The notes under the pieces were generated by a model. The model was not told where the DNA came from and made no database searches. It was given only the letters and a program-made list of their open reading frames with translations. From Candidatus Heimdallarchaeum aukensis (lineage in GTDB: Archaea > Asgardarchaeota > Heimdallarchaeia > Heimdallarchaeales > Heimdallarchaeaceae), in assembly GCA_021513695.1 (NCBI GenBank), contig CP084166.1, positions 96,001 through 160,000 of the forward strand: DNA of 64,000 bases, given 5' to 3'. The position numbers were made by a program, and so were the translations under genes. Position 1 is the first letter of the stretch; the number at the start of each line of letters is the position of its first letter. Positions 8,468-59,700 of this stretch are shown piece after piece.

Positions 8468-9364
8468 ATGAGTGGAATATATGTTAAAGATTTAATAAAA
8501 GTGTATCATGACCCAGAAACAGATGTAAGGGTCTCTGCTTTACGTGGGTTAGATCTATTTGTAAAAGAAGGGGAAGTTGCTTCAATAATAGGTCCATCGG
8601 GTGCAGGAAAAAGTACACTAATCAAAATTCTATGTGGTTTAGAAACAGCTTCTGGAGGATCAGTTTATATAGGTGATACAAATATAATTGAACTTTCAGA
8701 AAAGGAGATGCAAACGTTTAGATTCAAAAATATTGGTATAATAAACCAATTTGTTGCCCAGAATTTATTACCTAATTTAACTGTAGAGCAGAACATCCTT
8801 TTACCACTAAAAATGAGATATGCTAGTAAACAAAGAGCAAGAAAAGAACTAGAGGAATTGTTATCTGCTTTAAATATAGAAAGGATACGTTATAATCCTG
8901 TAACCAAAATCTCAGGAGGAGAAGCAGTAAGAACAAGCATTGGAGTTACACTAGCTAAAAAACCTAAAATCATACTCGCGGACGAACCTACAGGACAATT
9001 GGACACTGCTAACACAAACAATATTATTGAAACTTTTAAAGAACTGAATGAAGCTTTCAACACTACTATTCTAGTTGTGACACATGACTTGAGGTTTAGA
9101 AACGCTTTCAATAAAAGCTATATTATTCGTGATGGGAGACTAGTTGGTGTAAATGTTGAAATGGACCGTTCTGAACTTGATTTTCTTATTAAACCTCAAG
9201 AGTCTTCTCTCCAATCTGTAATTGACAGCAGCCAATTCGTAAGATTACCTGATGAAGTATACCAAACTGGAGAATTCAAGCATATTGTTGAATTTGATAT
9301 TCATCCTTCAAAGAAATTTTCAATTTTATTCAATCCTAACGATAAGAAAAGCAAAAACCATTAA
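8468..9364 (+). pseudogene. Truncated ABC ATPase copy containing NBD1 only, created by the tandem duplication. The frame runs across the junction at 9340/9341 into permease codons and ends DKKSKNH*.
   Basis: The first 291 aa are identical to 12278..14065. Walker A is GPSGAGKST, the signature is ISGGEAVR, and Walker B is ILADEPTGQLD. NBD2 is absent. Confidence 0.6.
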
Positions 9365-12272: not shown

Positions 12273-12277
12273 TGTAA

Positions 12278-27445: not shown

Positions 27446-29284
27446 ATGTTTGTAAAAAAAACGAAATCAGTTTATCAAAAATCAATGTACATAGATAAAC
27501 AATCTCTTATAATTGAGAAATATAAAAACGCTAATAAATGGTTCTGGTCTGCACTTTTGCGCTATCCTTTTCATTATTTGATTGGCTTTCTTTTGCTTAT
27601 TGTAAGTACTTATTTAACTGTAAACACAACTGCTCTCATAGGGACAGCTCTGGACTACTTACATGAAGAAGGTTTTTCAACTAATTTTAATAAAACTATT
27701 ACTTTAATGCTTATTTTTGTTCTTTTCAGCTGGATTGCTCAATCTTTGAGTGTTTATGTCTGGGCAATAGCTTCTTTCAGAATTCAGAGAGATATGCGTC
27801 AAGAATTTTATGAAGTCATTCAACAACACTCAATGGCTTTTTTTGATATTAATGATAGTGGAATTATTCTTAGCATGGGTATGAACGAAATAAATAGTAT
27901 TAGACTGGCTTTTAATCCTGCTTTAAGAATGTTATTGAGTTCAGTTGTAGGAATTATTATTTCCATCTTTTTCTTGTGGAGAGCTGATTTTTATATAGGT
28001 ATATCAATCTCTATAGCTTTTATAATATATTTTGTAATTGCTTGGATTTATGCTGGAAAGGTAGGCCCTATAAGGAAAAAGTTAGCAACTGATCTAAGTG
28101 AGCTATCTTCATTAAGTCAAGAGATGTTTAAAGGTATAGATACAGTCAGATCTTTTGATAATGAGGAAAAAGAGATAGCTAAGTTTGAGCACGTAAGTTA
28201 TCGATATGCTGAAGATATGAAAAAAGAAGGATATTTAAGCGCCTTCTATTGGCCTGCACTTATTACTGTTGTTTTTACTGCAGGAGCTTTTGCTTATGGG
28301 TCATGGATGGTAGTTAATAATTATTTTACGATCGGGACATTAATTACGATTCTAGCTTTGTTAATGTCTTTAAATAGACAAAATTTCATGATTCCTGCAA
28401 GGTTAATAATGCTTCAAGGGGGGATACAAAACGCAAAAAGATTGTGGGCTAAAATTTCATTCCAAGACCCATTAATAGAACCTTCAGATCCACTCACCGG
28501 TAATTGGGATAAAGGTATTGAGTTTAGGAATGTTAATTTTGCCTACCCAGGAACAAGTAAGTATTCGCTCCGTGATGTTTCCTTTAAAATACCTGTTGGA
28601 GCTCGTGTTGCCTTAATTGGAGGGCCAGGTTCTGGAAAATCTACTATTCTAAAACTTCTTTTACGTTTATATGATCCCAATGAAGGGGCTATATTTGTTA
28701 ATGGTACTCCTTTAAACCAAATGCACACTAAATATATAAGACAACATGTAACTTTAGTTGAACAAGAAATTTTTCTTTTTTCTGATACCATAAGAGCTAA
28801 TATCTCTTTTTCTAAACCTGATGCGACAGATGAGGAGATAAGAATTGCTGCAGAACGAGCTCAAATTGCTCAATTTATTGAATCTTTACCTCAAAAATAT
28901 GATACTGTTATAGGTGAAAGAGGAGTAACTTTAAGTGGTGGTCAAAGACAAAGAATAGCTATTGCTCGAGCACTACTCTCTAATCCTAAACTTCTGCTTT
29001 TAGATGATAGTACAAGTGCTGTAGATATAAAAACCGAGTTAAGATTACGTTATGCTATGGAAGAACTAATGAAAGGAAGAACAAGTGTAGTCGTTACTCA
29101 AAGATTAACAACTTTAGTGGAAGCTGATATGATTATTTTGATGAAAAAAGGAAAAGTTGTAGACATAGGAACTCATGAAGAGCTCTTAAGTCGTTGTGAA
29201 GAGTACCAGTTTATGTGTAAACATTTACCAATCAACAACGGATTAGAGCCTTCAGTTGCTGAAAGTGTTGGAGGTGGAAGATAA
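27446..29284 (+). CDS. ABC exporter subunit (TMD+NBD, type I exporter fold), the degenerate-site partner of a heterodimer
   Basis: There is a 6-TM N-terminal domain. Walker A is GGPGSGKSTIL. The signature is LSGGQRQRIAIARAL. Walker B is LLLDDSTSAVD, with Asp in place of the catalytic Glu. The gene ends ATAATG, overlapping the next gene. Confidence 0.85.
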   Translation: MFVKKTKSVYQKSMYIDKQSLIIEKYKNANKWFWSALLRYPFHYLIGFLLLIVSTYLTVNTTALIGTALDYLHEEGFSTNFNKTITLMLIFVLFSWIAQSLSVYVWAIASFRIQRDMRQEFYEVIQQHSMAFFDINDSGIILSMGMNEINSIRLAFNPALRMLLSSVVGIIISIFFLWRADFYIGISISIAFIIYFVIAWIYAGKVGPIRKKLATDLSELSSLSQEMFKGIDTVRSFDNEEKEIAKFEHVSYRYAEDMKKEGYLSAFYWPALITVVFTAGAFAYGSWMVVNNYFTIGTLITILALLMSLNRQNFMIPARLIMLQGGIQNAKRLWAKISFQDPLIEPSDPLTGNWDKGIEFRNVNFAYPGTSKYSLRDVSFKIPVGARVALIGGPGSGKSTILKLLLRLYDPNEGAIFVNGTPLNQMHTKYIRQHVTLVEQEIFLFSDTIRANISFSKPDATDEEIRIAAERAQIAQFIESLPQKYDTVIGERGVTLSGGQRQRIAIARALLSNPKLLLLDDSTSAVDIKTELRLRYAMEELMKGRTSVVVTQRLTTLVEADMIILMKKGKVVDIGTHEELLSRCEEYQFMCKHLPINNGLEPSVAESVGGGR

Positions 29285-31200
29285 TGGGACATGGAACTCG
29301 AGGACCTGGAAGAGCTCTAGGATTAGAGAAACATAAGCGTGCACGTTCTACTAAAGTTTTATTAGCTAGTTTGTGGAAATACTTGAAAAACTATATCTGG
29401 TCAATTTTCTTTGCTGCTTCTTTAATTATTCTTTATTCTCTATTTTCATTGGTTACTCCTTTAATACTTAAAACGGGCATAGATAAAGTCACAGAAGAAG
29501 ATGCTTCAATGAAAATCTTAATGCCAGTGATTGTCTCTTTCTTTGTATTGGTTATTTTAGGTTGGATAATTAACAGTATATCAACTATTATACTTACTAA
29601 AATAAATTCAAAGATGCTTCATGAAGTAAGAACAGACCTTTACAGAAAATTAAGTTACTCTGACATGTCCTATATCAAAAATGAACAATCAGGAAATATA
29701 ACTGCAAGGGTAACTTCAGATACTGGAGAATTGGCAACAGGGATACAAATATCAACTTCAATAGTTGCGCAGCTATTGTTGATCATAGGTTCTTTTGTCA
29801 TATTACTGGTTACAAATTGGGTAATAGCTTTGATTTCTATAGCTGCTGTCCCTATAGCTTTTGGAATAAGTTCAATTCTGAGTTATTTTGGAAGAAAAAT
29901 AGTTTTAAGAGTGAGAAGAGCTTTTGGCTATGTTTCAGGAAAGATGGCAGAAGGCTTAAGTGGAATTGCAGTAGCAAAATCGTTTAACAGAGAAGAAGAA
30001 CTAGCTACTGAATTGAGAGAATTAAACCAACAACACTATAATTATTCAAAGCAATTCGGATTTCTTATGATGTTTGTTATGCCATCCATTAGTGCATTAA
30101 GCTATGCTCTATTCACCTTGATCATTTATATGAGTGGATGGTTAAATAAAACTACAAATGTCATTAGTCTAGGAGATATTTATTTATCTATTAATTTATC
30201 TCAACAATTTCTCTTTCCGATTGTGATGCTAGCTATGTCTTTTCCTCAATTAGAATCTGCTTTTGGTGCAATGGATAGAATAATAGATATTTTTGATGCC
30301 AAACCTGCTATTTCTGATGCTCCTGATGCAAAATCTCTTCAAGAAGAAGATGATAGTGTACATTTTAAGAATGTAAGCTTTGCTTATAAAGAAGGAAATT
30401 ATGTGTTAAAGAATATCAACTTTTCGGCTAAACCAGGAGAATTAATAGCTGTAGTAGGACATACTGGAGCTGGAAAAACTACTTTGTTTTCCTATTTACT
30501 TCCTCGGTTCTATGATGTGACAGAAGGTGAGATATACATAGGTAACCAAAACATTAAGGAAGTAACACAGTCTTCTTTAAGACAGGCAATAGGCCTTGTT
30601 ACTCAAGAACCATTTCTTTTTTCTGGTACTGTTTATGAAAATATCATTTATGGAAAACCTGATGCTACAGAAGAAGAAGTGCGTAGTATCTGTGAAAGAA
30701 TAAATGCAGACGAATTTATTGAAGCTTTACAACATGGTTACAATACAAAAATAGTAGAAGGAGGAAAGAGACTATCTTCTGGTCAAAAACAAATAATTAC
30801 CATCGCAAGAACAATGTTGGCTAATCCCAGAATACTTGTTTTAGATGAAGCAACAAGCAGGTTAGATGCATATACAGAATCTTTGGTTCAAGCTGCACAA
30901 ATGGAATTATTCAAGGGAAGAACAACTTTTGTAATTGCTCATAGGTTATCAACAATTAAAGATGCTGACAGAATAATTGTACTTGATCATGGAAGGCTTG
31001 TAGAAGTAGGAACACATGAAGAATTAATGGAAAAGAAGGGAATATACCAAGACCTTTATACAACTTATTATGCCTATCAAGGATTAGAAAAAGTAGATAT
31101 TGATATTGAAGAATTGGAGCCTGAAATAGTGGAAAAACCAATAAAACCAAAGAAAAAACCTGCTCAATTCAAGTTAGATTCTAAGAAAAAGAAACCTTGA
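29284..31200 (+). CDS. ABC exporter subunit (TMD+NBD), the consensus-site partner
   Basis: Walker A is GHTGAGKTTL. The signature is LSSGQKQIITIARTM. Walker B is LVLDEATSRLD. The H-loop is AHRLS. It has a Lys-rich C-terminal tail. Confidence 0.85.
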   Translation: MGHGTRGPGRALGLEKHKRARSTKVLLASLWKYLKNYIWSIFFAASLIILYSLFSLVTPLILKTGIDKVTEEDASMKILMPVIVSFFVLVILGWIINSISTIILTKINSKMLHEVRTDLYRKLSYSDMSYIKNEQSGNITARVTSDTGELATGIQISTSIVAQLLLIIGSFVILLVTNWVIALISIAAVPIAFGISSILSYFGRKIVLRVRRAFGYVSGKMAEGLSGIAVAKSFNREEELATELRELNQQHYNYSKQFGFLMMFVMPSISALSYALFTLIIYMSGWLNKTTNVISLGDIYLSINLSQQFLFPIVMLAMSFPQLESAFGAMDRIIDIFDAKPAISDAPDAKSLQEEDDSVHFKNVSFAYKEGNYVLKNINFSAKPGELIAVVGHTGAGKTTLFSYLLPRFYDVTEGEIYIGNQNIKEVTQSSLRQAIGLVTQEPFLFSGTVYENIIYGKPDATEEEVRSICERINADEFIEALQHGYNTKIVEGGKRLSSGQKQIITIARTMLANPRILVLDEATSRLDAYTESLVQAAQMELFKGRTTFVIAHRLSTIKDADRIIVLDHGRLVEVGTHEELMEKKGIYQDLYTTYYAYQGLEKVDIDIEELEPEIVEKPIKPKKKPAQFKLDSKKKKP

Positions 31201-35259: not shown

Positions 35260-38200
35260 TTGCATATATTTATTAATGTCTGTTTAAAATTCACCTTTAT
35301 GAGTATAAAAAGCAAAAAAATTTTTTTGTCTTTTATTATTATTATGTTTATTACTTTAACAATAAATAGTGTAAAAGCTGAAGAGCAAGCAGCTCCTATT
35401 TTATATACGAAGTATTCTTCTTACACCAATATAGTTGAGTCAGTTTTTGACGAGAATAATCAAATGCATATTTTTCTCGGTCGTTCAGATGAATTTAATT
35501 ATAAAATCTTACATATCTTTAATGGAGAAGCGATACTCATTGATGCTGGTGTAAATAACATAGAAAGATTTTTCAAAGCAAAAATCTTCCCTGGAGGAGT
35601 TGCATTATTCTATTTAGATCACGATATTACAAAAGGAGATACATTATACTATTATTATTATTTCATAAATAACGGTTCACATGGCCTCAAGGTAATAACA
35701 AAATCAGGATTAGCATCTAATTATAAAATCAATATATTTCAGGATAACTCCAGATTTACAATTATTACTTCGTATAGTATTTCCTATTATACAAGTGCAA
35801 TAAAAAGCTTTAACTGCAGTTTTAGCGGAGAAATTTTAGACTCTGAAAGTTATGATGTTGAAGTCTCAATTTACAAGATAAAAGGATTCGTCTTTCAGAA
35901 TGAAAAAATATTCTTTTATTTTTACAAAGATGTTTATAACGCTAGTGCTTACCTCTCTTTTCTCTATGTTCAAGGGATAAACGAAAATGGACATATTTTC
36001 AATTCGAGCGTAATTGAATATCCTAATAGTTATTCAGAAACAATTATAACGCAAGGAATCAAAAAAGATTTTTATATCCAAACTATACAAGATGGTCAAA
36101 TTTTTTATTATTCTTTTAATGAAAATGAGACTTTTAGTTTCAGTGACTATAATTCTGCAGATTTTTATATTTACTATTATAACGAATATTCTATCGAGTA
36201 CACAGGTAATTGGATAAACACGACTTTCATAGAGTATGAATACATGTATTATAGTGACTTCTCTTATTCTTCAACTATTAACATTTTAGCTATCGTTACT
36301 TCATATAATTCAGAACAAATGTTGTTTGCAAAATTTGAAAAAACTATAACTTTTCAAGAAAGCTTTTTCCAATACTCAGTAGACATTGCTCTCGATGGTC
36401 CTTATTATTATATGTTTATTGCCACTAAAAGTACTGAAAAAATCCACTTTAATGAAACTGAAGTTTTAGGATTATATGTTCTCACAGATGATCCTAATTT
36501 TGTTCCACCTAAAGAACCAATATACTATGAAATCAAGCATATCTCCAATTTTACCTATTTCATGAAAAATTATTGGTGGACCCTTTTAATCGGTTTCGGT
36601 TTCATTGGTGGAATGTACGGTATTTTCCACAAGAGGATTAATAAGTCAATTCGCAAAATGAAAAAATTCCTGTTAAGACCTGTTGTGGACAATGTTTCTA
36701 CTGCTAAACTAATTTTAATCAACATTTGGCTATTTTTCTTTAATACTTATAGTTTAGTTCTTTCTTTGTGGAGAGTTAATAAAAAAAGACTAATAATAAA
36801 CATTCTTGGTCTTTCAATTCTTGCGTTTGTTCTGATAAACACTTCAGTACTTTATAATTCAGAACAGGCAACTGTTCTTCAGAAATATTTTGACAACCAT
36901 GACTTTGGTTCTAATTATGATACTTCTGTAGATTTTACAAAGACATTTATTGAACAATCAAAAACCGCTGAAAATATTTCCTTAATTAATGAAAATTATA
37001 CTTTATTAGCTGCAGAAGATATAATGAAATCTTTGAAACAAAAAGCTCCTACTTTAGCTTCCTTAATAGTTGATTATCAACTAACCAGTTTAATTACTAT
37101 CACAGGTTCAAACGTTACTTACGGAAATGAAGATATTCAATATTATTCAATAAACTCAAGCTATAATTTTGTTTTACAATCACTACTAGTTAATGGTACT
37201 TTGCCTAATAAAAAAGGAGAAGTAATTGTTTCTAGTAGTGTTGCTGAATATTATGACTTTCAAGTGGGTGAAGTAATACAATTTCAAGCAGTAAGCTATA
37301 AAGGTGCTTTCCTAAATTATGATGTAGTCAACCTAACTGTTTCTGGAATTTTTTCTAGTATTGGTTACAATACTTTGCGACAACTATGCGCAGATAATGA
37401 TCTACCATTTGATCCTGTTAGATATCTTACCTCTAACATGTTTTCAGCTATCGCTTTTAACAAATACTTCTTAAAAAATCTAGAAAATATCTCTTTAGGA
37501 CAACTAACCTTGTACGGAGATTTAGAGTTTATTTATGACTTTTCTTCGCTTGATCTAGAATCCTTTGAAAAACTAGTTGAAGAATATGAGTATTTAACTG
37601 AAAATCCTACTCAATACTTTAAATTTGATCCCAATGGTACCTGGTCATTAAGTTACGAGTTACGATATGTTATAATATATTTCCAATATGACCTAATAAT
37701 CATGCGGTTTTTAATCTATTTACTAACAATACCTATAGTCTTCTTAGCTTTATTTTTATTAAGTGAAGTTAACTCTATCTTTGCTTCAAGTTTTAAACAA
37801 GAGATAGAAATATTACAATCCCAAGGATTATCTGTTGGAAGAATAACTTTCATTTATTCTTCAATGAAATTCGGAGAGTCAGTTGTTGGAACAGTATTTG
37901 GACTTCTTGGAACATTTATATTTACACCAATTCTTTTAAAAGTTGATAAATTTCTACAATTTACGAACCCAATTTATCATTTTACTTTAAAGGGTAGCTT
38001 ATCTACAATTTTCATAACCTTTTTTGCTTTAATCATAGCTTCTCTCCCTCGAATTATTAGATTGGCAAAACAATCTGAAAAGAAACAAAAAGAACCAAGA
38101 AGATTTGTAACTCTAATAAAACGATTAAGAATACATTACTTTTTAGTCGTTATTTTTGGCGGAATTATTGCTTTCGGGGGATATTATTTAGCTGCTATTT

Positions 38201-39579
38201 TCACTTGGGTTTTTGAAGATTCATTTACTTCTCTCCTTGCTGTTTTTGTCAGCTTAATGGGAATAGGAGCTATGATTTCTATTTTCGGTATCGGATTAAT
38301 AATCAGAGAATTACATAATCTTCTCCTCATAATAGTCAGTAAATTGTCTTGGAAAGTTAAGAAATCTATAGGTTCCTTTTCATTAATTGAAGTTCGTTCT
38401 GATGCTAAGTTATTTACAAATACCTTTTTCTCATTTCTACTAATAATAGCTTTTGTAGTCCCTTCAATTATTGTTCCTTTGGCAATACAGGACCATTTCG
38501 TAAATATATCTTATTTCTCTTCTGGATCAGATGTTTATATTTCTAGCTGGTCTCTGTATAATGCTTCTAAGTCAAATATTACTTCTTACGATGAAGTAGT
38601 AAGTGTTGCTAATATTAGTGTTATAGAAACTACATATGGAGAACTCAACTTCCGTTTTCTAGTAATAGATAATTTAACAGAGTTCCGTTCTACAATATAC
38701 GATGTTCCAAAATACATAATGCCTGATTTTGATGAACTTCTATCCAAATTAGAACAAAATGATACTATGCTAGTAAGTAAGTTGTTTAACAAAGTTTTTC
38801 TTTCTCCTGAAACTTTTACCTTCACATCAGCTAATGAATCACTCAATAAAGAAATTCGAGTTGGAGGAGAGTTTACATACTTCCCTATCTTTTTCTTTGG
38901 CGATCGGTGGTTAAACGATAATTTTGAAATTTATTATTACGATTACATATGGTTTACTTTTCATATTGTCTTGACAAATCAAACTTTTACAGAAATCAAA
39001 GAAACTTTGAAAACACCTACTGTAGTTGTTGATAGACTCTTAATCAAACTTAAACCTAATTCTAATCCCATTAAATTTACTGAAAAAATTAAAAGAGATC
39101 TAAATATTGATTCAAGAAGTACGAAAGAACTAGCTGACTCAACTCTGTTTCAAGCCTATCCTTTCTATAGTGTTTTAACTTCGATGTTTGTTTATACAAT
39201 ACTAATGAGTATATTTGCAGTTGCTTTTATCAGTCTGAGTAATCCTTTGAAACTCTTGATACAGAAATCATCAAAGAATGACATTTTAAGAAAACTGGGT
39301 GTAAGGGTGAATAGAATTATTAACATATCTGCTTTTGAAATCTTTGTTTCAAGTTTTATACCTGGGATGATTCTTGGAGGACTTAGTGCCTACGGATTGT
39401 ATGTATTTTTCAAATACATTTTTATTGACTTTGGTTGGCGCGGTCTACCATACAAGAGTTACATGTTCTTCCCTGTTACTGGCGTTGTTATAGGCATATT
39501 TGGAGCATTATATTATGTCATCTTCTACTTCTCTATGAAGATGAATTTCTATAAATATAGACCTAGAAATTTGGAGTGA
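35260..39579 (+). CDS. Giant ABC transporter permease, paralog 2, with the same architecture as 4164..8462
   Basis: The likely start is ATG 35299. The signal peptide is IFLSFIIIMFITLTINSVKA. The extracellular domain is sequon-rich. There is a TM (WWTLLIGFGFIGGMYGIF) and two FtsX-type modules. It ends RPRNLE* within TTGGAGTGAT. Confidence 0.8.
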   Translation: MHIFINVCLKFTFMSIKSKKIFLSFIIIMFITLTINSVKAEEQAAPILYTKYSSYTNIVESVFDENNQMHIFLGRSDEFNYKILHIFNGEAILIDAGVNNIERFFKAKIFPGGVALFYLDHDITKGDTLYYYYYFINNGSHGLKVITKSGLASNYKINIFQDNSRFTIITSYSISYYTSAIKSFNCSFSGEILDSESYDVEVSIYKIKGFVFQNEKIFFYFYKDVYNASAYLSFLYVQGINENGHIFNSSVIEYPNSYSETIITQGIKKDFYIQTIQDGQIFYYSFNENETFSFSDYNSADFYIYYYNEYSIEYTGNWINTTFIEYEYMYYSDFSYSSTINILAIVTSYNSEQMLFAKFEKTITFQESFFQYSVDIALDGPYYYMFIATKSTEKIHFNETEVLGLYVLTDDPNFVPPKEPIYYEIKHISNFTYFMKNYWWTLLIGFGFIGGMYGIFHKRINKSIRKMKKFLLRPVVDNVSTAKLILINIWLFFFNTYSLVLSLWRVNKKRLIINILGLSILAFVLINTSVLYNSEQATVLQKYFDNHDFGSNYDTSVDFTKTFIEQSKTAENISLINENYTLLAAEDIMKSLKQKAPTLASLIVDYQLTSLITITGSNVTYGNEDIQYYSINSSYNFVLQSLLVNGTLPNKKGEVIVSSSVAEYYDFQVGEVIQFQAVSYKGAFLNYDVVNLTVSGIFSSIGYNTLRQLCADNDLPFDPVRYLTSNMFSAIAFNKYFLKNLENISLGQLTLYGDLEFIYDFSSLDLESFEKLVEEYEYLTENPTQYFKFDPNGTWSLSYELRYVIIYFQYDLIIMRFLIYLLTIPIVFLALFLLSEVNSIFASSFKQEIEILQSQGLSVGRITFIYSSMKFGESVVGTVFGLLGTFIFTPILLKVDKFLQFTNPIYHFTLKGSLSTIFITFFALIIASLPRIIRLAKQSEKKQKEPRRFVTLIKRLRIHYFLVVIFGGIIAFGGYYLAAIFTWVFEDSFTSLLAVFVSLMGIGAMISIFGIGLIIRELHNLLLIIVSKLSWKVKKSIGSFSLIEVRSDAKLFTNTFFSFLLIIAFVVPSIIVPLAIQDHFVNISYFSSGSDVYISSWSLYNASKSNITSYDEVVSVANISVIETTYGELNFRFLVIDNLTEFRSTIYDVPKYIMPDFDELLSKLEQNDTMLVSKLFNKVFLSPETFTFTSANESLNKEIRVGGEFTYFPIFFFGDRWLNDNFEIYYYDYIWFTFHIVLTNQTFTEIKETLKTPTVVVDRLLIKLKPNSNPIKFTEKIKRDLNIDSRSTKELADSTLFQAYPFYSVLTSMFVYTILMSIFAVAFISLSNPLKLLIQKSSKNDILRKLGVRVNRIINISAFEIFVSSFIPGMILGGLSAYGLYVFFKYIFIDFGWRGLPYKSYMFFPVTGVVIGIFGALYYVIFYFSMKMNFYKYRPRNLE
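35261..35275 (+). promoter_or_regulatory. Putative TATA box (gcatatatttatt) about 27 nt upstream of the ATG at 35299
   Basis: Its position suggests the real start is MSIKSKKIFLSF... at 35299, a signal peptide, rather than 35260. Confidence 0.3.
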
Positions 39580-41333
39580 TAAAAGTGATACAAGCTGATG
39601 ATTTATTAAAAGTATATTATGACCCTATTACTGAATACAAAGTTGCTGCTTTAAGAGGGTTATCTCTTGATATTAAAGAAGGTCAGTTAGTTAGTATAAT
39701 AGGCCCTTCTGGTTCAGGTAAAACAACCTTAATTAACATTTTAGCCGGACTTGATGTTCCTACAGGTGGAAGAGTAATTGTTAAGGGTCAACAATTAGAT
39801 AAAATGACAGAAAGAGAAAGAAGAGAGTTTAGGTATTATAATATTGGTTTAATTAATCAGTTTATAAGCCAGAACTTGTTTCCAAGACTCACTGTAATAG
39901 AAAATCTGATGATACCTAAACGTATGTTTTGTCTTCCTCATGAAACAGCTAAAAAAGAAGTAGAAGAGTTACTCGAACTTTTGAGATTAAAGCATATAGC
40001 AAAGAATAATGTAGAAAAAATATCTGGAGGAGAAGCAATTCGGTTGTCTCTTGGAGTAGCCTTAGCAAAGAATCCTGATATTTTGTTGTGTGACGAACCT
40101 ACAGGTCAATTAGACAATATGCATACTAAAGAAGTAGTTGAAACTATTAAAGATGTAAATATTACCATGGGTAAAACAATACTTGTAGTTACCCACGATA
40201 TTCGCTTTAGGACTGTTTTTGAACGAAGTTTCATCATTCGTGATGGCCGTCTTGCTGGAATTAGTGTGGATATTAATAGGAATCAACTAGAATTTCTTAT
40301 GGAATCTTCTGAAATGAAGAGATCTTATGTAGACCCTTCTAATTTCGCTAGAATTCCAGATGAAATAAAACGCAGTTTAGGCATTAAAGACACTGTTGAA
40401 TATGATCTTCATCCTTCGAAAAAGATTGGTTTAATTTGGAATCCTGATTTGATAACTAGAGAAGATATTTTCCACATATTAAACAACCCAGAAGAAGAGT
40501 ATGAAGAGACAGTAGATCAAATAAGCTATGAAGATGTAGAACCTATTCTCTCTCGAAGTTTTGTACCTCCTGAAAAAGAAGAACCTATTATTAAAATAAG
40601 TAATTTGAAGAAAGGATATCCTTCTCCAGCTGGATATAATCTTGTACTAAAGGGTATTAACTTATCAATTAATAAAGGAGATTTTGTTTTTATTTCTGGT
40701 CCCAGTGGAGTAGGTAAGACTACGCTCTTTAATTGTATTTCAGGATTAGATAAGATTGATGATGGACATGTAGAAATAATGGGTTTTGATATCAAAAACC
40801 AACCAGAACCTCTTATTTCTGATTTTAGATTAAAGCACATATCTTATATCACTCAGCACAATAACCTTTTTGAACCGCTATTAGTTGAAGATAACCTTTT
40901 CTTACCTTATTTGTTTTTAGGAGAGAAGATAGATATAGATTATGCCAAAAAAATAATGAAAGAATGCTTTATTGATCATAAAATTAAGTCTTACCCTGAT
41001 GAACTTTCTGCAGGAGAAAAACAACGTGCAGCACTAGCTACTAGTTTGGCAAGGAAAACATCTATCCTTATTGCTGATGAACCCACTGCTAATCTTAATT
41101 CTGAACTTGCCCGTTCAATAATTAATCTTTTTATGGATATATCTAAGCTAGAGCAAAAAACAGTTATTATCTGTTCTCATGATTTGAGTTTATTACGTCC
41201 AGGATTTAGACATATTCGTCTATCAGATGGTCAGATAGCGGAAGATTATCGTGTAACAAAAGAGCAATTACAAGAGATTATTACAGAATACCTTAGCATT
41301 CAAAAGAACAAAAAAAATGAATCTATTACGTAA
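39576..41333 (+). CDS. Tandem-NBD ABC ATPase, paralog 2
   Basis: NBD1 has GPSGSGKTTL, ISGGEAIR, LCDEPTGQLD and VVTHDIRF. NBD2 has GPSGVGKTTL, LSAGEKQRAALATSL, LIADEPTANLN and CSHDLSL. The conserved linker is IPDEIKRSLGIKDTVEYDLHPSKKIGLIWNPD. The start is GTG 39576, overlapping the permease stop (GTGA), or GTG 39585. Confidence 0.85.
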   Translation: MIKVIQADDLLKVYYDPITEYKVAALRGLSLDIKEGQLVSIIGPSGSGKTTLINILAGLDVPTGGRVIVKGQQLDKMTERERREFRYYNIGLINQFISQNLFPRLTVIENLMIPKRMFCLPHETAKKEVEELLELLRLKHIAKNNVEKISGGEAIRLSLGVALAKNPDILLCDEPTGQLDNMHTKEVVETIKDVNITMGKTILVVTHDIRFRTVFERSFIIRDGRLAGISVDINRNQLEFLMESSEMKRSYVDPSNFARIPDEIKRSLGIKDTVEYDLHPSKKIGLIWNPDLITREDIFHILNNPEEEYEETVDQISYEDVEPILSRSFVPPEKEEPIIKISNLKKGYPSPAGYNLVLKGINLSINKGDFVFISGPSGVGKTTLFNCISGLDKIDDGHVEIMGFDIKNQPEPLISDFRLKHISYITQHNNLFEPLLVEDNLFLPYLFLGEKIDIDYAKKIMKECFIDHKIKSYPDELSAGEKQRAALATSLARKTSILIADEPTANLNSELARSIINLFMDISKLEQKTVIICSHDLSLLRPGFRHIRLSDGQIAEDYRVTKEQLQEIITEYLSIQKNKKNESIT

Positions 41334-41818: not shown

Positions 41819-44758
41819 ATGAAAAAGTCTACACTCTTTTTTCTTCTATCTTTTCTAATTTTAAATATATCAAGTTTAATGTATGGATCATCTAATTCTA
41901 ATGTGAATAAGTATGTTGTTTCTTTAAATAGTAAGAATTTAGATTCTACAGAAGACACAATTTCATACCAAATAGAATCAAGATCTTATTCTCGCTCAAT
42001 TAGGAAAGATACTACAAACTACTATAGTTGGATAGAAAGTAGAAGCCTTTCAAGTGCAAAAGATCTAGCATTCTTCATGCTAGAGCAATTCGATTTTAAC
42101 TCAATACAAGTTACAAATGTTCATGATCTGGCTTTAGTTCACTTTGCAATAGCTTATATTGACCTTTTCTTTGCCACTTACAATCCTGATTATCTTTATA
42201 CAGCTCACTGGATTGTTAATAATAGTCTATTTTTAGATATAAACAAAAATATGATTGCTCTAGATACAAAAACTACCGACTATAAGGTATTTGCCTATGA
42301 TAATCTTTACTTGGTTTTAATGTATGAAAGATTTGCCAAAGCTTATGAAGCAACCTTTGATTTTCTAGTTGCTGATACTTTTTGGACTCTAGCTGATAAT
42401 TTGATGAACAATATTACAACTATTTTTTATGATGAAACTAATCACATTATCAAAGAATATGCTTTTATTTCAAGTACTGATTGGTCTGTTATTAATTCAT
42501 CTAGTTACACAACAGCAGAAATAGCTGGATTATACTCCATGGCTTCTCATGGTCTTAAGGATCCTACAAGCTACCATTCTCAAAGTTATGATGTAATTAA
42601 ATACTATTTCAACAACTATATTCAATATGTGAATCTAGGCGAAGGGTTCGATCGTTGGGCACCACTTAAAGGAACAAATCCGGCGATTAATGATACTCTC
42701 GCATTTACTGGAAGTGTTTTCTTGTCTTCTGCATACTTCTATGAAAGTAAGTACTTAAAGAGTCAAGGAAATACAACTTATGAAGATTTATTCTTTGTAT
42801 ATGGACAATGGTTGTTAGAGGATGCTCTAGCTATATTTTATAATTCAGAATACAATTTGCCGGTGTCAACGTATAACATTACTTCTAGCACTAAAGGAAC
42901 TATTATTTCAGCGTTTGATAGTACATTAGCTGCATTAGCTCTTAGAGAGTTTAATAGATACCATCTAGAGAAATATGGTTTTTCTCCAGGTGAACTTGCT
43001 ATTTCCATAATTACTACAACACAGGGTGTTTTCAAGACAGCTAATTTTTACGATCCTGGATTATCTACAGATCAAGGAATTTTTTCCTATAAAATAGATG
43101 AATATAGGAAAAACCCCTTTGTTATCAATTCAATGGCAATTTCAATGGAATTAAAGAAATATGCGTTAGCAGCTGATTTATCTGTTCCTGAATTTATTTA
43201 TACTAATGAAACTGTTGACATTTTCTGGACTATTTTCTGGAGTGAGAGCACAAATATCTTTAGTTACTCTAATGCCTCTTTTGCTACAAGTTTTGATTTT
43301 ACAATAGACAGTGTTCTTAATTTCACAGCTAACGATACTATAATAATAAATACATTTTCCATTGACGCTGTCCAAGTTACAGAACCCACTAGTTTCTATG
43401 TAAACACTACAGTAAGTGAAGGAGGAGATTACTACCCGAGATTCACCATTTCTATAGGTGAAACAACTGTAATTGATCATGAAAGTAGCATTTACGTTTT
43501 AAGAGAATTAAGGGTATACACTGATCCATCTAGGATTCAAGCGACTCAAGGGGTTGATGAATATTTAGAATTCTCTATCTTATGTGAAGATGAAAAAGGT
43601 ATTTCAGTACCAAAAGTTTCTTTATCTCTAACTTGGCTCGGTAATACTACTAATGTAATTTCAAACAATGCTGGTTCATATGATTTTAAAATGTCAGTGA
43701 AAGATATTTTAGCTCTACCAGAATTTACAAACAATCCTGATGAAAATCCAAGATTTGATTTCGAAATATATGCAACTAAAGATGGGTTCGTTGAATTTTG
43801 GTTAATTAAAACCATAACAATAAGAAGAAATGCTCTTATTCTTGAACTCTCACAAGATTTAGCTGTGAAAAGAGGAAATGATTTGACACTAACTATAGGC
43901 GTACAACCTCAAATACAAACATTAGTTCTTAATCCTAAAGCTTCAATCTATCTGAACGGTGAAGATATTTCAAATGAAGTTTCTCAAAGTATGGACCCAA
44001 GATTTGCTCCGAAGTTAATGCCTATTCCTCTTCCAGCTCAAATAACTTTACCAACAAAAGATTTGAAAGAAAATGCTAATTTAGTTATTGAGATAACAAG
44101 TAATAACTTTCCAACAGAACGTTTTGAGTATGAGATCGAAATAATACCGTTAAACACTTTTGAAGCTATTTATCAATGGTTATCTGACGTGTTCTCATCA
44201 ACTCTAGGGAAAATACTAGGTTCTCTCAGTGTTATTTGGGCAGTTCTGTGGAAACAATTCTCTCTCTATGTTCTACACATTATTAAACGCTGTCCCTATT
44301 GTGGTGAAACAGTGAAAAGAAGATATTCAACTTGTAGATATTGTGGAAACATAATTGATAGGTCAAAGTATGTTCAAACAAAAATGAAATTTTTACCTGA
44401 AGATACAGAGCATGATCATAATCCAAAAAACAATTTTAATCTTGATAAAAATCCAAGTCCAAAAGAAAATCTTAAGTCAAAAGATTCAGGTTTAACTTCA
44501 ATTCCTTTCGATGAGAACACTTATACAGAGCCTAAGTCTCCTTCTGAAGATACTTATACAGAGCCTAAGTCTCCTTCTGAAGATACTTATACAGAGCCTA
44601 AGTCTCCTTCTGAAGATACTTATACAGAGCCTAAGTCTCCTTCTGAAGATACTTATACAGAACCTGAGCCTTCTTCTGAAGATGCTTATACAGAACCTGA
44701 GCCTTCTTCTGAAGATACTTATACAGATTCAGAAAAAGATGAAAGCAATTGGTTTTAG
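41819..44758 (+). CDS. Large type-I membrane/surface protein with a signal peptide, an extracellular domain of about 800 aa (sequon-rich), a TM, a cytoplasmic CxxC...CxxC zinc ribbon, and a C-terminal 11-aa tandem-repeat tail
   Basis: The signal peptide is MKKSTLFFLLSFLILNISSLMYG. The TM is ILGSLSVIWAVLWKQFSLYVLHII. The zinc ribbon is CPYCGETVKRRYSTCRYCGN. The tail is (TEPKSPSEDTY) x4 followed by (TEPEPSSEDxY) x2. Confidence 0.6.
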   Translation: MKKSTLFFLLSFLILNISSLMYGSSNSNVNKYVVSLNSKNLDSTEDTISYQIESRSYSRSIRKDTTNYYSWIESRSLSSAKDLAFFMLEQFDFNSIQVTNVHDLALVHFAIAYIDLFFATYNPDYLYTAHWIVNNSLFLDINKNMIALDTKTTDYKVFAYDNLYLVLMYERFAKAYEATFDFLVADTFWTLADNLMNNITTIFYDETNHIIKEYAFISSTDWSVINSSSYTTAEIAGLYSMASHGLKDPTSYHSQSYDVIKYYFNNYIQYVNLGEGFDRWAPLKGTNPAINDTLAFTGSVFLSSAYFYESKYLKSQGNTTYEDLFFVYGQWLLEDALAIFYNSEYNLPVSTYNITSSTKGTIISAFDSTLAALALREFNRYHLEKYGFSPGELAISIITTTQGVFKTANFYDPGLSTDQGIFSYKIDEYRKNPFVINSMAISMELKKYALAADLSVPEFIYTNETVDIFWTIFWSESTNIFSYSNASFATSFDFTIDSVLNFTANDTIIINTFSIDAVQVTEPTSFYVNTTVSEGGDYYPRFTISIGETTVIDHESSIYVLRELRVYTDPSRIQATQGVDEYLEFSILCEDEKGISVPKVSLSLTWLGNTTNVISNNAGSYDFKMSVKDILALPEFTNNPDENPRFDFEIYATKDGFVEFWLIKTITIRRNALILELSQDLAVKRGNDLTLTIGVQPQIQTLVLNPKASIYLNGEDISNEVSQSMDPRFAPKLMPIPLPAQITLPTKDLKENANLVIEITSNNFPTERFEYEIEIIPLNTFEAIYQWLSDVFSSTLGKILGSLSVIWAVLWKQFSLYVLHIIKRCPYCGETVKRRYSTCRYCGNIIDRSKYVQTKMKFLPEDTEHDHNPKNNFNLDKNPSPKENLKSKDSGLTSIPFDENTYTEPKSPSEDTYTEPKSPSEDTYTEPKSPSEDTYTEPKSPSEDTYTEPEPSSEDAYTEPEPSSEDTYTDSEKDESNWF
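44515..44727 (+). repeat. Coding tandem repeat of 33 bp x about 6.4 (unit gatacttatacagagcctaagtctccttctgaa)
   Basis: Units start at 44515, 44548, 44581, 44614, 44647 and 44680. The last two are diverged (cct gag cct tct). A partial seventh unit follows. Confidence 0.9.
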
Positions 44759-55031: not shown

Positions 55032-56774
55032 TTATTTGTCATTGATTTTTACTTGTAAGAAATACTCAATTATTTCTTTCAAATCTTTCTTTGTTATACG
55101 TTTATCTGACTGAATTCCACCTTTTTCTAAGACTATGTGTCTCATTCCTGGTCTTAACAAACTAAGATCATGCGAGCAAATAATTACTGTTGTTTGTAAT
55201 TTTTCTGCAACATCCATTAATACATCAATTATGGCTCTTGCCAAATCACTATCTAAATTAGCTGTTGGTTCATCTCCTATTAGAATAGGCGTTTTTCTTG
55301 TTAATGCAAGTGATAAGGAAGCTCGTTGTTTTTCTCCAGCAGAAAGTTCATCAGGATAAGCTTCTAACTTATGTTTTATTTGACATTCCTCAACCATATT
55401 TAGAGAGTACTCTTCATCATAGTCTAATTTAGAAAACAGATAAGGGACAAGAAGATTATCTTTAACTGTAACAGGTTCAAAGAGGTTATTATGCTGAGTG
55501 ATATAAGCAATGTTCTTTAATCTAAACATTGATGTTTCATATTCATCTTTATCATGAAGTGAAACATTATTGATAATTATTTCTCCTTTATCTGCTTTTA
55601 CAAGTCCTGTAATGCAATTAAAAAGGGTAGTTTTTCCTACTCCACTGGGCCCAGTAATCATTACGAAATCTCCTTTTTTAACTTCTAAGTTAATGTTTTT
55701 TATTACTTGATTATAACCTGCTGGAGAATGATATCCTTTGGAAACTCCTTTTAATTGCAAAATATTTTCTCTACTCTCTATGAAGTTGAATTTTCTGCTA
55801 ATAATTTTTTCAATTTCTTCATAAGAAATTTCTCGAGATTCTTTAATCGCTTCGTCAACTGGTTTATTCAAAATCTTGTATATTTCTTCTCTATTTACTA
55901 TATCAGGATTCCAAAATAAACCAAGAGATCCAGCAGGATGAGCGTCAAATTCTACTACATCATAAAGCTTTGTTTTCATCTTTATTTGATCAGGTATTCT
56001 AAGAAGGCTATTTTTATCTAAGTAAGCCCGATTATTTGTAGAAGAACTTGTCATAAATTCAAGTTTATCTTTTTCCATATCTTGACTTACTCCTACTAAT
56101 CTCCCATCTCTAATGATAAAGCTATGTTTGAATACATTTCTAAAGCGGATATCGTGAGTCACAACAACAATAGTTTTACCCGTGTTCTCGTTAATATCTT
56201 TTATAGTATTAATTACTTCTTTAGTATGCTCAGTATCTAATTGACCTGTAGGCTCGTCAAGAAGTAGAAATTTAGGATTTTTAGCTAAGGCTGCACCTAA
56301 AGATAAACGCATAGCCTCTCCACCAGAAATGCGAGAAACGAGATTATTTCGCACATGATATAAGTTTAACAGTTCTAAAATTTCCTTGACTTCTCTTCTG
56401 GCTTGCTCTCTTGGAATGTAAAATAATTTTTTGTGTATCATAAGATTCTTTTCAACAGAGAGATTTGAGAATAAGTTATCGCTAATATTTTGATTGATCA
56501 ACCCAATGTATCTGAATCTGAACTCTCTTAGTTGTTTTTGAGACATTTTTTCTAAATGATGGTTGTCAATAATGACTGATCCTCCAGTAATATCTTCTAA
56601 GCCAGATAAAATCTTGATTAATGTGGTTTTTCCTGCTCCAGAAGGACCAACTATACTTACAAGATCACCTTTTTCTACATATAAATCTAATCCTCTTAAA
56701 GCAGCAACTTTATAATCAGAATGAGGGTCGAAATAAATTTTAAATAAATCAATACATTGTATCATTTTTATCAC
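55032..56774 (-). CDS. Tandem-NBD ABC ATPase, paralog 3
   Basis: NBD1 has GPSGAGKTTL, ISGGEAMR, LLDEPTGQLD and VVTHDIRF. NBD2 has GPSGVGKTTL, LSAGEKQRASLSLAL, LIGDEPTANLD and CSHDLSL. The start is GTG 56774 (GTGA overlap) or ATG 56765. Confidence 0.85.
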   Translation of the reverse strand: MIKMIQCIDLFKIYFDPHSDYKVAALRGLDLYVEKGDLVSIVGPSGAGKTTLIKILSGLEDITGGSVIIDNHHLEKMSQKQLREFRFRYIGLINQNISDNLFSNLSVEKNLMIHKKLFYIPREQARREVKEILELLNLYHVRNNLVSRISGGEAMRLSLGAALAKNPKFLLLDEPTGQLDTEHTKEVINTIKDINENTGKTIVVVTHDIRFRNVFKHSFIIRDGRLVGVSQDMEKDKLEFMTSSSTNNRAYLDKNSLLRIPDQIKMKTKLYDVVEFDAHPAGSLGLFWNPDIVNREEIYKILNKPVDEAIKESREISYEEIEKIISRKFNFIESRENILQLKGVSKGYHSPAGYNQVIKNINLEVKKGDFVMITGPSGVGKTTLFNCITGLVKADKGEIIINNVSLHDKDEYETSMFRLKNIAYITQHNNLFEPVTVKDNLLVPYLFSKLDYDEEYSLNMVEECQIKHKLEAYPDELSAGEKQRASLSLALTRKTPILIGDEPTANLDSDLARAIIDVLMDVAEKLQTTVIICSHDLSLLRPGMRHIVLEKGGIQSDKRITKKDLKEIIEYFLQVKINDK

Positions 56775-59700
56775 TCCAAATTCATAGGTTGATATCTAGC
56801 AAATTGCATTTTCATTGTCATGTAGAATATAGAGAAAAACATAACAGGAATAACTAGAAAAATTATCACCGCAATAACTGGTGGAAACTGAATAGGATTA
56901 GGCAATATCTCTTGCCTTAGGCTTCTTAACACTCTTCGTATAATTTCAGTTATTGTAAAACCTACTGCTGTACCACTGATTATTCCAGGAAGAATTCCAA
57001 TCATGAATAATTCAAAGGAACTCATTTGAATTATAAGTTTGTTAGGTATACCCATCTTCTTAAGAATGTCATGCTTACCCATTCTTCTTTGCAATATCTT
57101 AAGAGGATTACTCATACTTGTAAATACAATAGAGATTATGCAAATTAATAATGAAAAAACAAATATTGAAACTATCGAAGCATAAAAGGGAAGATTGGTA
57201 CGGTAAATTTCTTGTTCTTCTTCAACTATGTTAATGATTTCTAGATTGTATTTCTCTTCTAAACTTGAAGAAAATTGAACTATATCCGTTTTTTCTTCAA
57301 CATTTATTAATAATCTATAACCAAATACTCCAAAAACGGTTAAACTCTCTTCTATTTTCTCATAATTGCTCTCTGTTAGAACAATCATAGGAGTTCCTCC
57401 CGATTCTCGTGGACCATAAGGATAGATTATGGGGAAATAGTCAAACTCATCTATTATCTTCACTTCTACGTCATCGAATGAGTATTTCATTTCGCTAATA
57501 TCAAAGAAAAACTTGAAGTTGCTAGAAACAATTATCTCTTTATCGTTATCCAGTTGAGGAATAATATCATCCCAATTTTTGTAAAATCTTTCTGAAGGTT
57601 TATACGCTGTATTATAGAAATCCGAAGCTTTTTGAATCACTAAAAGATTTAACTGTCTTCCTCCAAACATTGCGTCAACTTGAGAAACGTTACATATGCC
57701 GATTACTTCGGGAAGAATTTTAATTTCATCACTGATACTGGAATTAACGTTATTGTAATTGCTTATATACATATCAGCTCCTGCCATAAAGTAAGAATCT
57801 TTTATTATCCCATTCTGCATTGTTAGAGGAGCAGCTATTGCAGGAACAGCAATTCCTACCAAAAGTAAATAGGTCAAGAAAATATCATTAAACAATGAAA
57901 GATCTGTTTTTACTTCAACTAATGAGAAAGTGAATATATTCTTCTTAATTTTCCACAAAGTTTTGCTTAAAACTGCCATAATAAAAGAGTGAAGATCTTT
58001 TAAAATTAGTCCTAAACCGAATAAAGATATCATTACTCCAATTCCAATAATATACACGAAAATGTTTATCAATTGGTTATCTGAAGAAGAAAGATTTTCG
58101 CTGAAAGTTAGATATAGTTTTAGTCCTCCGTAAATTATTCCTCCTCCAACAGCAATAATAATGAAGTTGCCGATTTTCACCTTTTTAAGAAAAGAAACAA
58201 ATTTGTTATAATCTCTTATTTGCTCCTTCTTTATTTTTGCCATTCTTATTGTTAAAGGTAAAGTAATAATTATTAAACCAAAGAACGAAATTGTGAAAAT
58301 TAAAGGAAGATTCTTTAACGAAGGCATTGTAGAACTTAGATTGAAAGAGACAAATCTATCTAATTTTAATAAAATGGGAATAATCAGTATTGCTTCTCCT
58401 AAACCTAAAAAGGTTGCAATAAGTGATTCTACAAATTTCATTACTGTGTTCAGATAAACTATTTTTCCAGTTGACAACCCTTTGGAACGGAGAATTTTAA
58501 TTTCTTCATCAAAACTTGTAGCAAATAAGGCATTTGTTTCAAAAATCAAGAATAGTGCAAGGTAAAGGACAGGTATTGATAATAAAACAATTAGAAATTG
58601 AGTAGAGGAATAGGAAGGAACTAAACTTTGCAATACTAGTTTTAATTCAGTTGAAATAACCCAAGAACCACCTAAATCAAATTTTACAGGATGATCGTAA
58701 CTTGGTTGTAAAATGTCAAAATCATTTATTAGTTTTCCAATATTTTTAGAATTAACTAAAGAAAAATCATAGAAAAATTGAACTATACCATCAAATTTCA
58801 GATGTTGAACTGGCATAGTTTTTAAACTTGACAGATAAAAATCATTGAAAGTTATTGCACCGATGTATTGTGAAATCATTTCTATGAGATCATATGATAA
58901 TCCATAATCTCTACTCATCTTAAATAATGAAGGTTCTGTTGGTTTTTCGTAAATCCCTACAATAGTCATGTTCACTCTTTCTTTTAAACCTCCAACAGAG
59001 ACATCTGCACCAACAAAGACAATAGTGTCGTTTATTGTTTTATTGAAAGCTGTCGCTGTAGTTTGATCGATTATAACTTCATTGATTTTATCAGGTAACC
59101 TACCTGAAACTAGAATTCTTCCCAAAATATCCTTATAATTAGTAGATAAGGAATAATATGATTCTACGCTCTGAACTGTACTCTCAGTATCCTTCTTAAA
59201 TAGAATTCGCATTTGCATTGAATAATCAGAATCAATAATTATATCCTTCAAAACTTCAGTTTTAAAAGCGATAGTTGAAAGAATCTCGTTCATAACAGCA
59301 GAAGAAAAATTCTCGTAAAAAGGTGAGTATTCATTTACTCTCCCCCATCTCGCGGAAAGAACATTATGCATTCTCGAAAACGTAGCTGAAGCTTTTTCAT
59401 CTTCTTCTAAATGAGCATCTTCTAAATATTGTTGTATCATCATGTTTTGTTTATATGAAAAGAGTGAAGAAGAAGAGAAAACAATCATTGCCAAAATTGA
59501 TAAGCCTAGTATTGTTATTATAGCTCTCTTTTTGTTTGATCTCCATAAATCGAAAGGAAGACTCAATGAACTTACAATAAAAACCCATAGATTGAGAAAT
59601 ACTAAAACAAATTTACTTTTTCCAGTTTTTATAGGTCTAAATAAAAACCTAAATAGTTTTTTTCCTTGATTTACTATTTTTTTGTAAAATATGGCTATAA

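Follow-up and report, generated by a model that had tools for sequence, protein, structure and literature searches.

Three loci of Candidatus Heimdallarchaeum aukensis encoding a putative type VII ABC system with a propeller-bearing permease and a tandem-domain ATPase

ATP-binding cassette (ABC) transporters of type VII take part in lipoprotein sorting, the control of division hydrolases, antibiotic resistance, and the extraction of lipids in bacteria. To our knowledge, they are known almost only from these organisms. Here, we describe three related loci, named A, B, and C, in a window of 64,000 nt from the archaeon Candidatus Heimdallarchaeum aukensis (CP084166.1, positions 96,001-160,000; GC content of about 30%), to which all coordinates below refer. 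According to the open reading frame (ORF) map, each locus consists of a gene for a permease of about 1,425 amino acids (aa), followed downstream by a gene for an ATPase of about 580-595 aa that carries two nucleotide-binding domains (NBDs). We consider it probable that each of them encodes a complete two-chain type VII machine, working by mechanotransmission in the extraction of amphipathic molecules, with an extracellular beta-propeller as its partner.

The best characterized system for comparison is YbbAP from Escherichia coli. YbbP has 10 transmembrane (TM) helices, with periplasmic domains inserted between TM1 and TM2 and between TM7 and TM8, a coupling helix following each of TM2 and TM8, and a link formed by TM5 and TM6; it binds two YbbA subunits, and YbbAP works together with the periplasmic hydrolase TesA (PMC12646458). 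The YbbAP-TesA structures (9GE6/9GE7/9GE8) share with the H. aukensis system a single-chain, pseudo-symmetric 10-TM permease with two periplasmic domains, the topology of which equals that predicted for the H. aukensis core, and their extracytoplasmic hydrolase may be echoed by the S15 hydrolase encoded beside the A-type loci. However, YbbA is a single NBD used twice (2:1), whereas the H. aukensis ATPase brings two NBDs in one chain, joined by a 110-aa linker. Moreover, YbbP has neither an N-terminal propeller nor an extra TM helix, it is only about 10% identical in sequence, HMMER and NCBIfam see no relationship, and H. aukensis, an archaeon, has no outer membrane.

The BceAB(-BceS) system from Bacillus subtilis (7TCG, 8G4C) also has a 10-TM fused type VII permease, and its BceA-class NBDs are similar to those described here. 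In contrast to the H. aukensis permease, which has two large extracytoplasmic domains, BceB has a single one (between TM7 and TM8); in addition, BceA is a homodimer, and the system has a histidine kinase partner, none of which was found near loci A-C. LolCDE, MacB, FtsEX, HrtBA, and YtrEF resemble the H. aukensis system in the fold of each half of the permease core and in their NBD class, whereas the 4-TM chains of their permeases are separate or form homodimers, none of them with a fused propeller. MacB has its NBD fused at the N-terminus of the permease and not to a second NBD, whereas the NBDs of H. aukensis are located on a separate chain, without an adaptor (membrane fusion protein) gene nearby. 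A preliminary description of these loci, made from the DNA sequence alone, had presented the double FtsX permease as part of an unusual module; this is overstated, since single-chain 10-TM permeases of type VII are already known in YbbP and BceB.

The permease core and its N-terminal domain

The permease gene of locus B, permB, occupies positions 35260-39579 of the forward strand, in an ORF opening with a TTG at 35260. Its true start is likely to be the ATG at 35299 (Met14), because the length of the product then equals that of a 1,426-aa hypothetical protein of H. aukensis to which permB is 100% identical; identity to the orthologue from its sister species H. endolithica is 78%. The length of 1,450 aa given in the preliminary description is thus reduced, with the likely starts, to about 1,426 aa in locus B and about 1,424 aa in locus C, permA having 1,432 aa.

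The last 1,000 residues of the permease, modelled with AlphaFold2 from an alignment of 70 sequences, gave a model with a predicted local distance difference test score (pLDDT) of 87.9 and a predicted TM-score (pTM) of 0.84. In this model, a helix following the propeller leads to an elbow and TM1, an extracytoplasmic domain (ECD1) of about 240 aa, TM2, a coupling helix, TM3, and TM4; after a hairpin formed by TM5 and TM6, the chain continues with a second elbow and TM7, ECD2 of about 205 aa, TM8, a coupling helix, TM9, and TM10. The unit of four TM helices with a large MacB-fold extracytoplasmic domain between its first and second helix is therefore present twice in the model. On the forward strand, the first FtsX unit extends over 36700-38070 (ECD1 at 36928-37650) and the second one over 38368-39555 (ECD2 at 38533-39156), the hairpin joining them, which has its counterpart in YbbP and BceB, being encoded at 38131-38358 (model helices 519-545 and 551-594).

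When the core model was compared with the PDB by Foldseek, the best matches were the E. coli YbbP structures 9ge6 and 9ge7 (E values of 8e-22 and 3e-19, over some 995 aligned columns), followed by BceB (4e-15 to 2.5e-12) and, at lower ranks, by LolC/LolE, MacB, YtrF, and HrtB, as well as by the isolated periplasmic domains of MacB, LolC, LolE, and YknZ. All these matches had a probability of 1.00. It was the fold comparison alone that linked the core to YbbP, since a profile of the permease core found no match among the PDB sequences; more distant members of the family do carry precomputed FtsX matches. The assignment of the core to type VII (the MacB/FtsX superfamily), with a YbbP-like build, is well supported by the predicted structure. 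The double MacB/FtsX build that had been proposed from the sequence is borne out by structure prediction and Foldseek. As for its details, two units are present as described, to which additional TM helices have to be added: one after the N-terminal domain, and the TM5-TM6 hairpin between both units.

The N-terminal part of the permease is predicted to lie outside the cell. The chain begins with a putative signal peptide or N-terminal anchor, MSIKSKKIFLSFIIIMFITLTINSVKA (35299-35379, forward strand), recognized by its hydropathy, by a model helix at residues 4-21, and by similar N-termini in the homologues; a V-K-A site followed by EEQ fits signal peptidase I, which makes cleavage probable. It is followed by a predicted extracellular 7-bladed beta-propeller (35386-36528, forward strand) of 28 strands in seven groups of four, and by an extra TM helix, TM0 (36547-36672, forward strand), which would bring the chain back to the cytoplasm; TM0 is indicated by hydropathy and appears both in the model of the N-terminal domain (helix 417-458) and in that of the core (helices 2-32). 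The former, obtained with AlphaFold2 from 30 sequences, has a pLDDT of 86.5 and a pTM of 0.81, and its strands sit between the N-terminal hydrophobic helix and the long TM helix.

Foldseek matched this domain to generic propellers (TM-scores of 0.3-0.4) without any specific structural relative, and no match was found in Pfam or NCBIfam, including the WD40, PQQ, Kelch, FG-GAP, and TolB propeller families. The objections raised beforehand, that an ordinary YbbP/FtsX protein might carry a common adhesin fold at its N-terminus or that the gene pair might already be annotated with a known function, turned out to be half right: the core has an ordinary YbbP-like fold and the beta-propeller, although of no recognisable sequence family, is a very common fold, but the pair does not correspond to any annotated family of known function. 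Blade 1 has the motif D-x2-[GN]-x-[LFM]-H-x-F, in which only D, H, and F are near-invariant. Of the 300 proteins collected, a hidden Markov model (HMM) of the propeller matches all the members of about 1,400 aa from Heimdallarchaeaceae and no others, while the N-terminal extensions of about 520 aa of the relatives from Kariarchaeaceae likewise show, by eye, a D..GN[IL]H motif. A word-indexed search with the N-domain alignment returned one partial relative, a result that says little on absence. By these comparisons, the propeller has been found only in Heimdallarchaeaceae.

The N-terminal domains of loci A, B, and C are less than 25% identical to each other and connected only by short, weak BLAST links, in line with the estimate by eye of clearly under 50% in the preliminary description. 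Because intermediate members of the family connect the paralogues, they represent a single fast-evolving homologous domain. The description of this domain as packed with N-glycosylation sequons was not confirmed by a comparison with shuffled sequence, in which the propeller contained seven sequons for an expectation of 4.5 (p=0.15); a heavily glycosylated N-domain was accordingly rejected. By the same measure, ECD1 contained eight sequons versus 3.5 expected (p=0.011) and ECD2 seven versus 2.7 (p=0.008), and the ATPases had 3-7 versus 3.1-4.3 (p 0.13-0.73). An enrichment confined to ECD1 and ECD2, both predicted to be extracytoplasmic, fits the predicted topology.

A distant relative, P0246 (1,769 aa, encoded at 8001-13310 of the archaeal contig L004), bears a different N-terminal extension of about 830 aa, in which thrombospondin type 3 repeats occur together with DxDGD repeats of the FG-GAP/VCBS-like kind; it has no adjacent ATPase gene. 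Since its head differs from the propeller, varied extracellular heads are fused to one core.

The tandem-NBD ATPase and its linker

The ATPase of locus B, atpB (39576-41333, forward strand; 585 aa), starts 4 nt within the end of permB, overlapping its stop codon. It comprises NBD1 (39576-40256), a linker (40257-40586), and NBD2 (40587-41255). All three ATPases contain two ABC_tran domains (Pfam, E values around 1e-62; 7.5e-63 for atpB), and NBD1 and NBD2 are about 30% identical. The best NCBIfam models for these domains are LolD, FtsE, and DevA, the cutoff of LolD being passed only because the two NBDs sum, and the best PDB matches of the single NBDs are LolD, MJ0796, PsdA, BceA, and YtrE. Judging from these matches, both NBDs are of the LolD/FtsE/MacB class, which is the class of type VII transporters. 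Together with the fold matches of the permease, this class supports the initial view of a MacB/FtsX-type (type VII) ABC system.

Both signatures reported in the preliminary description, ISGGEA[VIM]R and LSAGEKQRA, were found. In an alignment of 118 homologues, Walker A, the Q-loop, the signature, Walker B with the catalytic glutamate, and the H-loop are at least 90% conserved in both NBDs, so that the two composite ATP sites are apparently both catalytically competent. A degenerate ATP site as the source of asymmetry was rejected, as all motifs are intact in both NBDs. The asymmetry would lie instead in the composition of the system: one permease chain combined with one tandem-NBD chain would form an intrinsically asymmetric full transporter, as had been proposed, and our results support this proposal.

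The similarity to LolD brings up an alternative, in which the machine would act as a Lol-like extractor, pulling lipid-modified or membrane-anchored proteins from the archaeal membrane for their release or their transfer to the surface layer. LolD is the best NCBIfam and PDB match of the NBDs, and each half of the core strongly matches LolC and LolE in structure. However, LolCDE uses two separate 4-TM permeases and the chaperone LolA, docked on a hook, and no LolA-like gene lies nearby; besides, the similarity to LolD is general to this NBD class, with its cutoff reached only by adding up two domains. We regard this explanation as very unlikely.

The alignments bear out the presence of a linker motif common to the three ATPases. 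The conserved core of the linker in atpB, YVDPSNFARIPDEIKRSLGIKDTVEYDLHPSKKIGLIWNP (40326-40445, forward strand; residues 251-290), follows the pattern YVD..N..RIPDE...VEFD.HPSKK....WNP, which is also present in distant tandem ATPases of 548-561 aa and constitutes the C-terminal tail of an unfused NBD from Hodarchaeales. This pattern resembles the hairpin-helix-hairpin of AbrB/SpoVT proteins (VDxxGxxRIPxE...). An alignment of the linker core with B. subtilis AbrB by hhalign fell in the expected register, with a P value of 0.0025 but a probability of 12%, and searches of Pfam and of the PDB sequences gave no match for this region. An AbrB-like domain in the linker is thus a weak lead.

Distribution, maintenance, and age of the family

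When 1.84 billion representatives were searched exhaustively with HMMER, the core profile matched only 601 proteins at E<=1e-3, 58 of them at E<=1e-30. The first group is formed by about 25 representatives of about 1,400 aa with an N-terminal extension of 400-450 aa. After a gap, down to an E value of about 1e-44, come forms of about 1,490 aa from Kariarchaeaceae, followed by propeller-less proteins of about 950-990 aa and by forms of about 1,950 aa. Within the 20 clusters looked up, all members named by organism (24/24) come from Asgard archaea, namely from Heimdallarchaeaceae, Kariarchaeaceae, Hodarchaeales, Loki/Promethearchaeota, and Odinarchaeota. A word-indexed search with the whole permease retrieved only itself and its H. 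endolithica orthologue, which says little on absence.

A genome scan with a 4-sequence alignment detected 17 loci, all of them in metagenome-assembled genomes (MAGs) of Heimdallarchaeota, unclassified archaea, or Promethearchaeati. A tandem-NBD gene is located directly downstream of the permease in 14 of these loci, that is, in every locus extending that far, since the sequence stops at the permease in L010 and L012 and within the ATPase gene in L006. In H. endolithica, loci A, B, and C are all found within the corresponding 60 kb or so. On the side of the ATPase, the proteins of 575-600 aa with tandem NBDs that were retrieved numbered more than 120, and all the named ones are from Heimdall or other Asgard archaea.

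The relatives without a propeller, from MAGs of Loki-, Heimdall-, Hod-, and Odin-archaea, have a homologous core of about 950-980 aa (E values of 1e-38 to 1e-15) and a tandem-NBD ATPase of 548-561 aa with the linker motif given above. They differ from the H. aukensis loci in having two permease genes per ATPase gene, or fusions of about 1,950 aa. The first arrangement, with two double-FtsX permease genes of about 950-980 aa followed by one tandem ATPase gene of 548-551 aa, is found in three loci (L001, L022, L023). In Hodarchaeales and Odinarchaeota (P0209 in L002, P0235 in L024), the two double-FtsX permeases are fused into a chain of about 1,950 aa with four FtsX units. The Hodarchaeales locus carries, upstream of the permease, two separate single-NBD genes of 298 and 230 aa, the first of which ends in the linker motif; this unfused pair is most simply read as the state before the fusion. 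From these comparisons, the pairing of the permease with a tandem-NBD ATPase occurs across the Asgard archaea.

Literature searches on FtsX in Asgard archaea, on ABC systems of Heimdallarchaeum, and on type VII ABC transporters with fused NBDs returned no description of this permease/ATPase family, and no annotated family of known function was found for the gene pair, a possibility that had been left open in the preliminary description. Whereas the fused double-FtsX permease is already known, the novelty lies in its tandem-NBD partner and in the fused N-terminal propeller: neither the tandem-NBD chain with its conserved linker, nor the propeller tethered by an extra TM helix in Heimdallarchaeaceae, was found in any paper or family library.

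All six genes are maintained under purifying selection. Between H. aukensis and H. endolithica, ratios of nonsynonymous to synonymous substitution rates (dN/dS), which are approximate given a dS of about 1, were 0.016-0.035 for NBD1, the linker, and NBD2, 0.06-0.10 for the permease core, and 0.10-0.13 for the propeller. With values of 0.02-0.025, the linker is constrained as strongly as the NBDs. Pseudogenes were rejected for all three copies on the basis of these ratios (0.02-0.13).

The propellers are the fastest-evolving part of the system and exist in at least three paralogous types, which would fit alternative recognition heads of a BceAB-like module for detoxification or sensing, one that recognises antimicrobial peptides, or the lipids that these target, at the membrane surface and frees or expels them. 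In structure, BceB ranks second among the matches of the core (E values as above), BceA and PsdA are among the best matches of the NBDs, and JGI labels relatives of the permease as 'ABC-type antimicrobial peptide transport system permease'. However, the dN/dS of the propellers indicates purifying and not diversifying selection, the permease has two large extracytoplasmic domains and BceB only one, and none of the three loci has a gene for a histidine kinase or a response regulator nearby. Such a function appears improbable.

Across the loci, the ATPases are 46-58% identical, and the permeases align over their C-terminal part of about 1,000 aa with 24-33% identity (32% between permB and permC, and 24-25% between permA and either of them). 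Clustering of the ATPases by distance separated a deep A-type clade of 43 members from a B/C clade that has 75 members and is divided into sub-clades. Given the depth of these clades, the paralogues are older than much of the radiation of Heimdallarchaeaceae, with an old split between A and B/C. The suggestion of an old, maintained family is thus upheld by both the dN/dS values and the clustering.

That three loci share one two-gene architecture was confirmed by their ORFs, with a qualification for locus A, which carries a tandem duplication. Locus A (4164-14065, forward strand) begins with permA (4164-8462), whose architecture is that of permB, and ends with the full tandem-NBD ATPase atpA (12278-14065; 595 aa). 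Between 5531 and 13150, two copies of a 3,810-bp unit stand head to tail on the forward strand (5531-9340 and 9341-13150) and are 100% identical. With breakpoints just behind TM0 of permA and within the inter-NBD linker of atpA, the duplication creates a truncated ATPase ORF of 298 aa with NBD1 only (8468-9364) and a propeller-less permease ORF of 1,006 aa (9252-12272). As assembled, the order is therefore full permease, NBD1-only ORF, propeller-less permease ORF, and full ATPase. Because the duplication was not found at the orthologous locus of H. endolithica (L015), which contains only genes for 1,432 and 595 aa, it would be either very recent or an assembly artefact.

Locus C (55032-61195) is encoded on the reverse strand. 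The ORF of permC (56771-61195) has 1,474 aa, and its long form, starting with a GTG at 61195, runs into a divergent gene for a major facilitator superfamily transporter (61158-62492). Since the signal peptide begins at Met51, the real start is probably located at 61045, which gives about 1,424 aa. The ATPase gene atpC (55032-56774; 580 aa) overlaps permC by 4 nt.

Neighbouring genes and proposed mechanism

Only the A-type module has conserved hydrolase neighbours. An alpha/beta-hydrolase of the S15 family (X-Pro dipeptidyl-peptidase/CocE-NonD) is encoded divergently from permA (2029-3993, reverse strand); it matches Pfam Peptidase_S15 (2.6e-49) and PepX_C, bears an N-terminal hydrophobic signal anchor, and is rich in sequons. 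In other genomes, 10 A-type loci (among L008-L021) have the S15 gene upstream of their permease, and the permeases of these loci are only 34-42% identical to permA, with the exception of the sister species. Downstream of the module, a HAD hydrolase gene (14230-15012, forward strand) is kept in 11 loci. In these 10-11 other genomes of Heimdallarchaeota, the S15 and HAD neighbours show 47-58% identity, again with the sister species excepted. No SGNH (TesA-type) esterase was found among the neighbours, and none of the three loci is accompanied by a gene for an adaptor, chaperone, kinase, or regulator. In view of the cooperation between YbbAP and TesA, a hydrolase of the periplasm, we see in the S15 hydrolase a reasonable candidate for a partner of the A-type module.

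Two further observations concern other genes of the window. Just downstream of locus B, a gene at 41819-44758 (forward strand) encodes a 979-aa secreted or membrane protein in which a TM segment is followed by a zinc-ribbon and the C-terminal tail contains the sequence EDTYTEPKSPS about seven times in near-perfect repeats; it also adjoins locus B in H. endolithica, with 81% identity. At 27446-31200 (forward strand), two neighbouring genes encode half-transporters of 612 and 638 aa, each with ABC_membrane and ABC_tran domains, which would form a conventional heterodimeric ABC exporter of the type IV fold, unrelated to loci A-C.

The S15 neighbour also bears on another explanation, according to which the system would be an allosteric regulator without transport, similar to FtsEX, where the ATP-driven motion of its extracytoplasmic domains would reposition the tethered propeller to switch on or hold an extracellular enzyme or adhesion partner, in the A-type perhaps the S15 hydrolase. 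Fold and NBD class are established as those of type VII systems, both FtsEX-EnvC and YbbAP-TesA have as their output that a hydrolase outside the cytoplasm is controlled or fed, the A-type loci are adjoined by a gene for an extracellular S15 hydrolase, and propellers are typical platforms for protein binding. Nevertheless, FtsX is a 4-TM homodimer with a small extracytoplasmic domain, unlike the H. aukensis core, and the B and C loci have no conserved enzyme neighbour, making this explanation as doubtful as a BceAB-like function.

We favour instead extraction by a complete two-chain machine, the stoichiometry, mechanotransmission, substrate class, and partner roles of which we propose by analogy with the described systems. 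After the probable cleavage of the signal peptide, the permease would display the 7-bladed propeller outside the cell, and the chain would re-enter the membrane through one extra helix, to continue as a YbbP-like pseudo-dimer of 10 TM helices, with MacB-type extracytoplasmic domains between TM1 and TM2 and between TM7 and TM8 and coupling helices after TM2 and TM8. The ATPase would supply both NBDs and thereby the two composite ATP sites, each NBD presumably docking one coupling helix. By analogy with YbbAP, LolCDE, BceAB, and HrtBA, the TM helices would be zipped up on the binding of ATP, and the extracytoplasmic domains would swing. Such a machine would most likely serve to pull an amphipathic molecule, such as a lipid, a lipid-linked compound, or a peptide, from the outer leaflet and to hand it over towards the outside. 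As a built-in binding partner, it would have the tethered propeller, and in the A-type the S15 hydrolase could be the acceptor.

Several points weigh against this interpretation. None of our results points to a substrate, and beyond its one conserved Asp/His motif, nothing resembling an active site could be recognised in the propeller. The TM-scores of the core to YbbP are low (0.37-0.48) and speak for fold class and topology only, not for conformation. The Pfam models FtsX (PF02687) and MacB_PCD (PF12704) score the permeases below their gathering thresholds, with 18.6-19.6 bits versus 25.5 and 19.3-25.7 bits versus 27, respectively, and NCBIfam has no family for the permease. As far as the hydrolases are concerned, the B- and C-type loci have no conserved one as a neighbour, and the synteny of the HAD and S15 genes could reflect mere slow genome rearrangement within one family.

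A bolder version would see in these loci a type VII lineage of the Asgard archaea's own, in which a heterodimeric NBD pair became fused and, in Heimdallarchaeaceae, a propeller was built in, with the A-type module and its S15 neighbour as the archaeal counterpart of YbbAP-TesA, a surface machine that would extract membrane lipids or lipid-linked molecules for the hydrolase and so remodel the envelope of those archaea that, as far as is known, stand closest to eukaryotes. We consider this version unlikely as a whole, if somewhat less so than the BceAB- and FtsEX-like explanations.

The practical value of these findings is limited until a substrate is found. Nonetheless, the loci indicate that Asgard archaea hold an expanded, lineage-specific set of type VII systems. 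Having both NBDs in one chain, with a constrained linker between them, and a propeller fused to the permease would make the machine obligatorily asymmetric, and this naturally locked two-chain arrangement may serve as a model of how the halves of a type VII machine divide their labour. The family also offers for study, in Asgard cell biology, a group of surface proteins that are abundant and unannotated.

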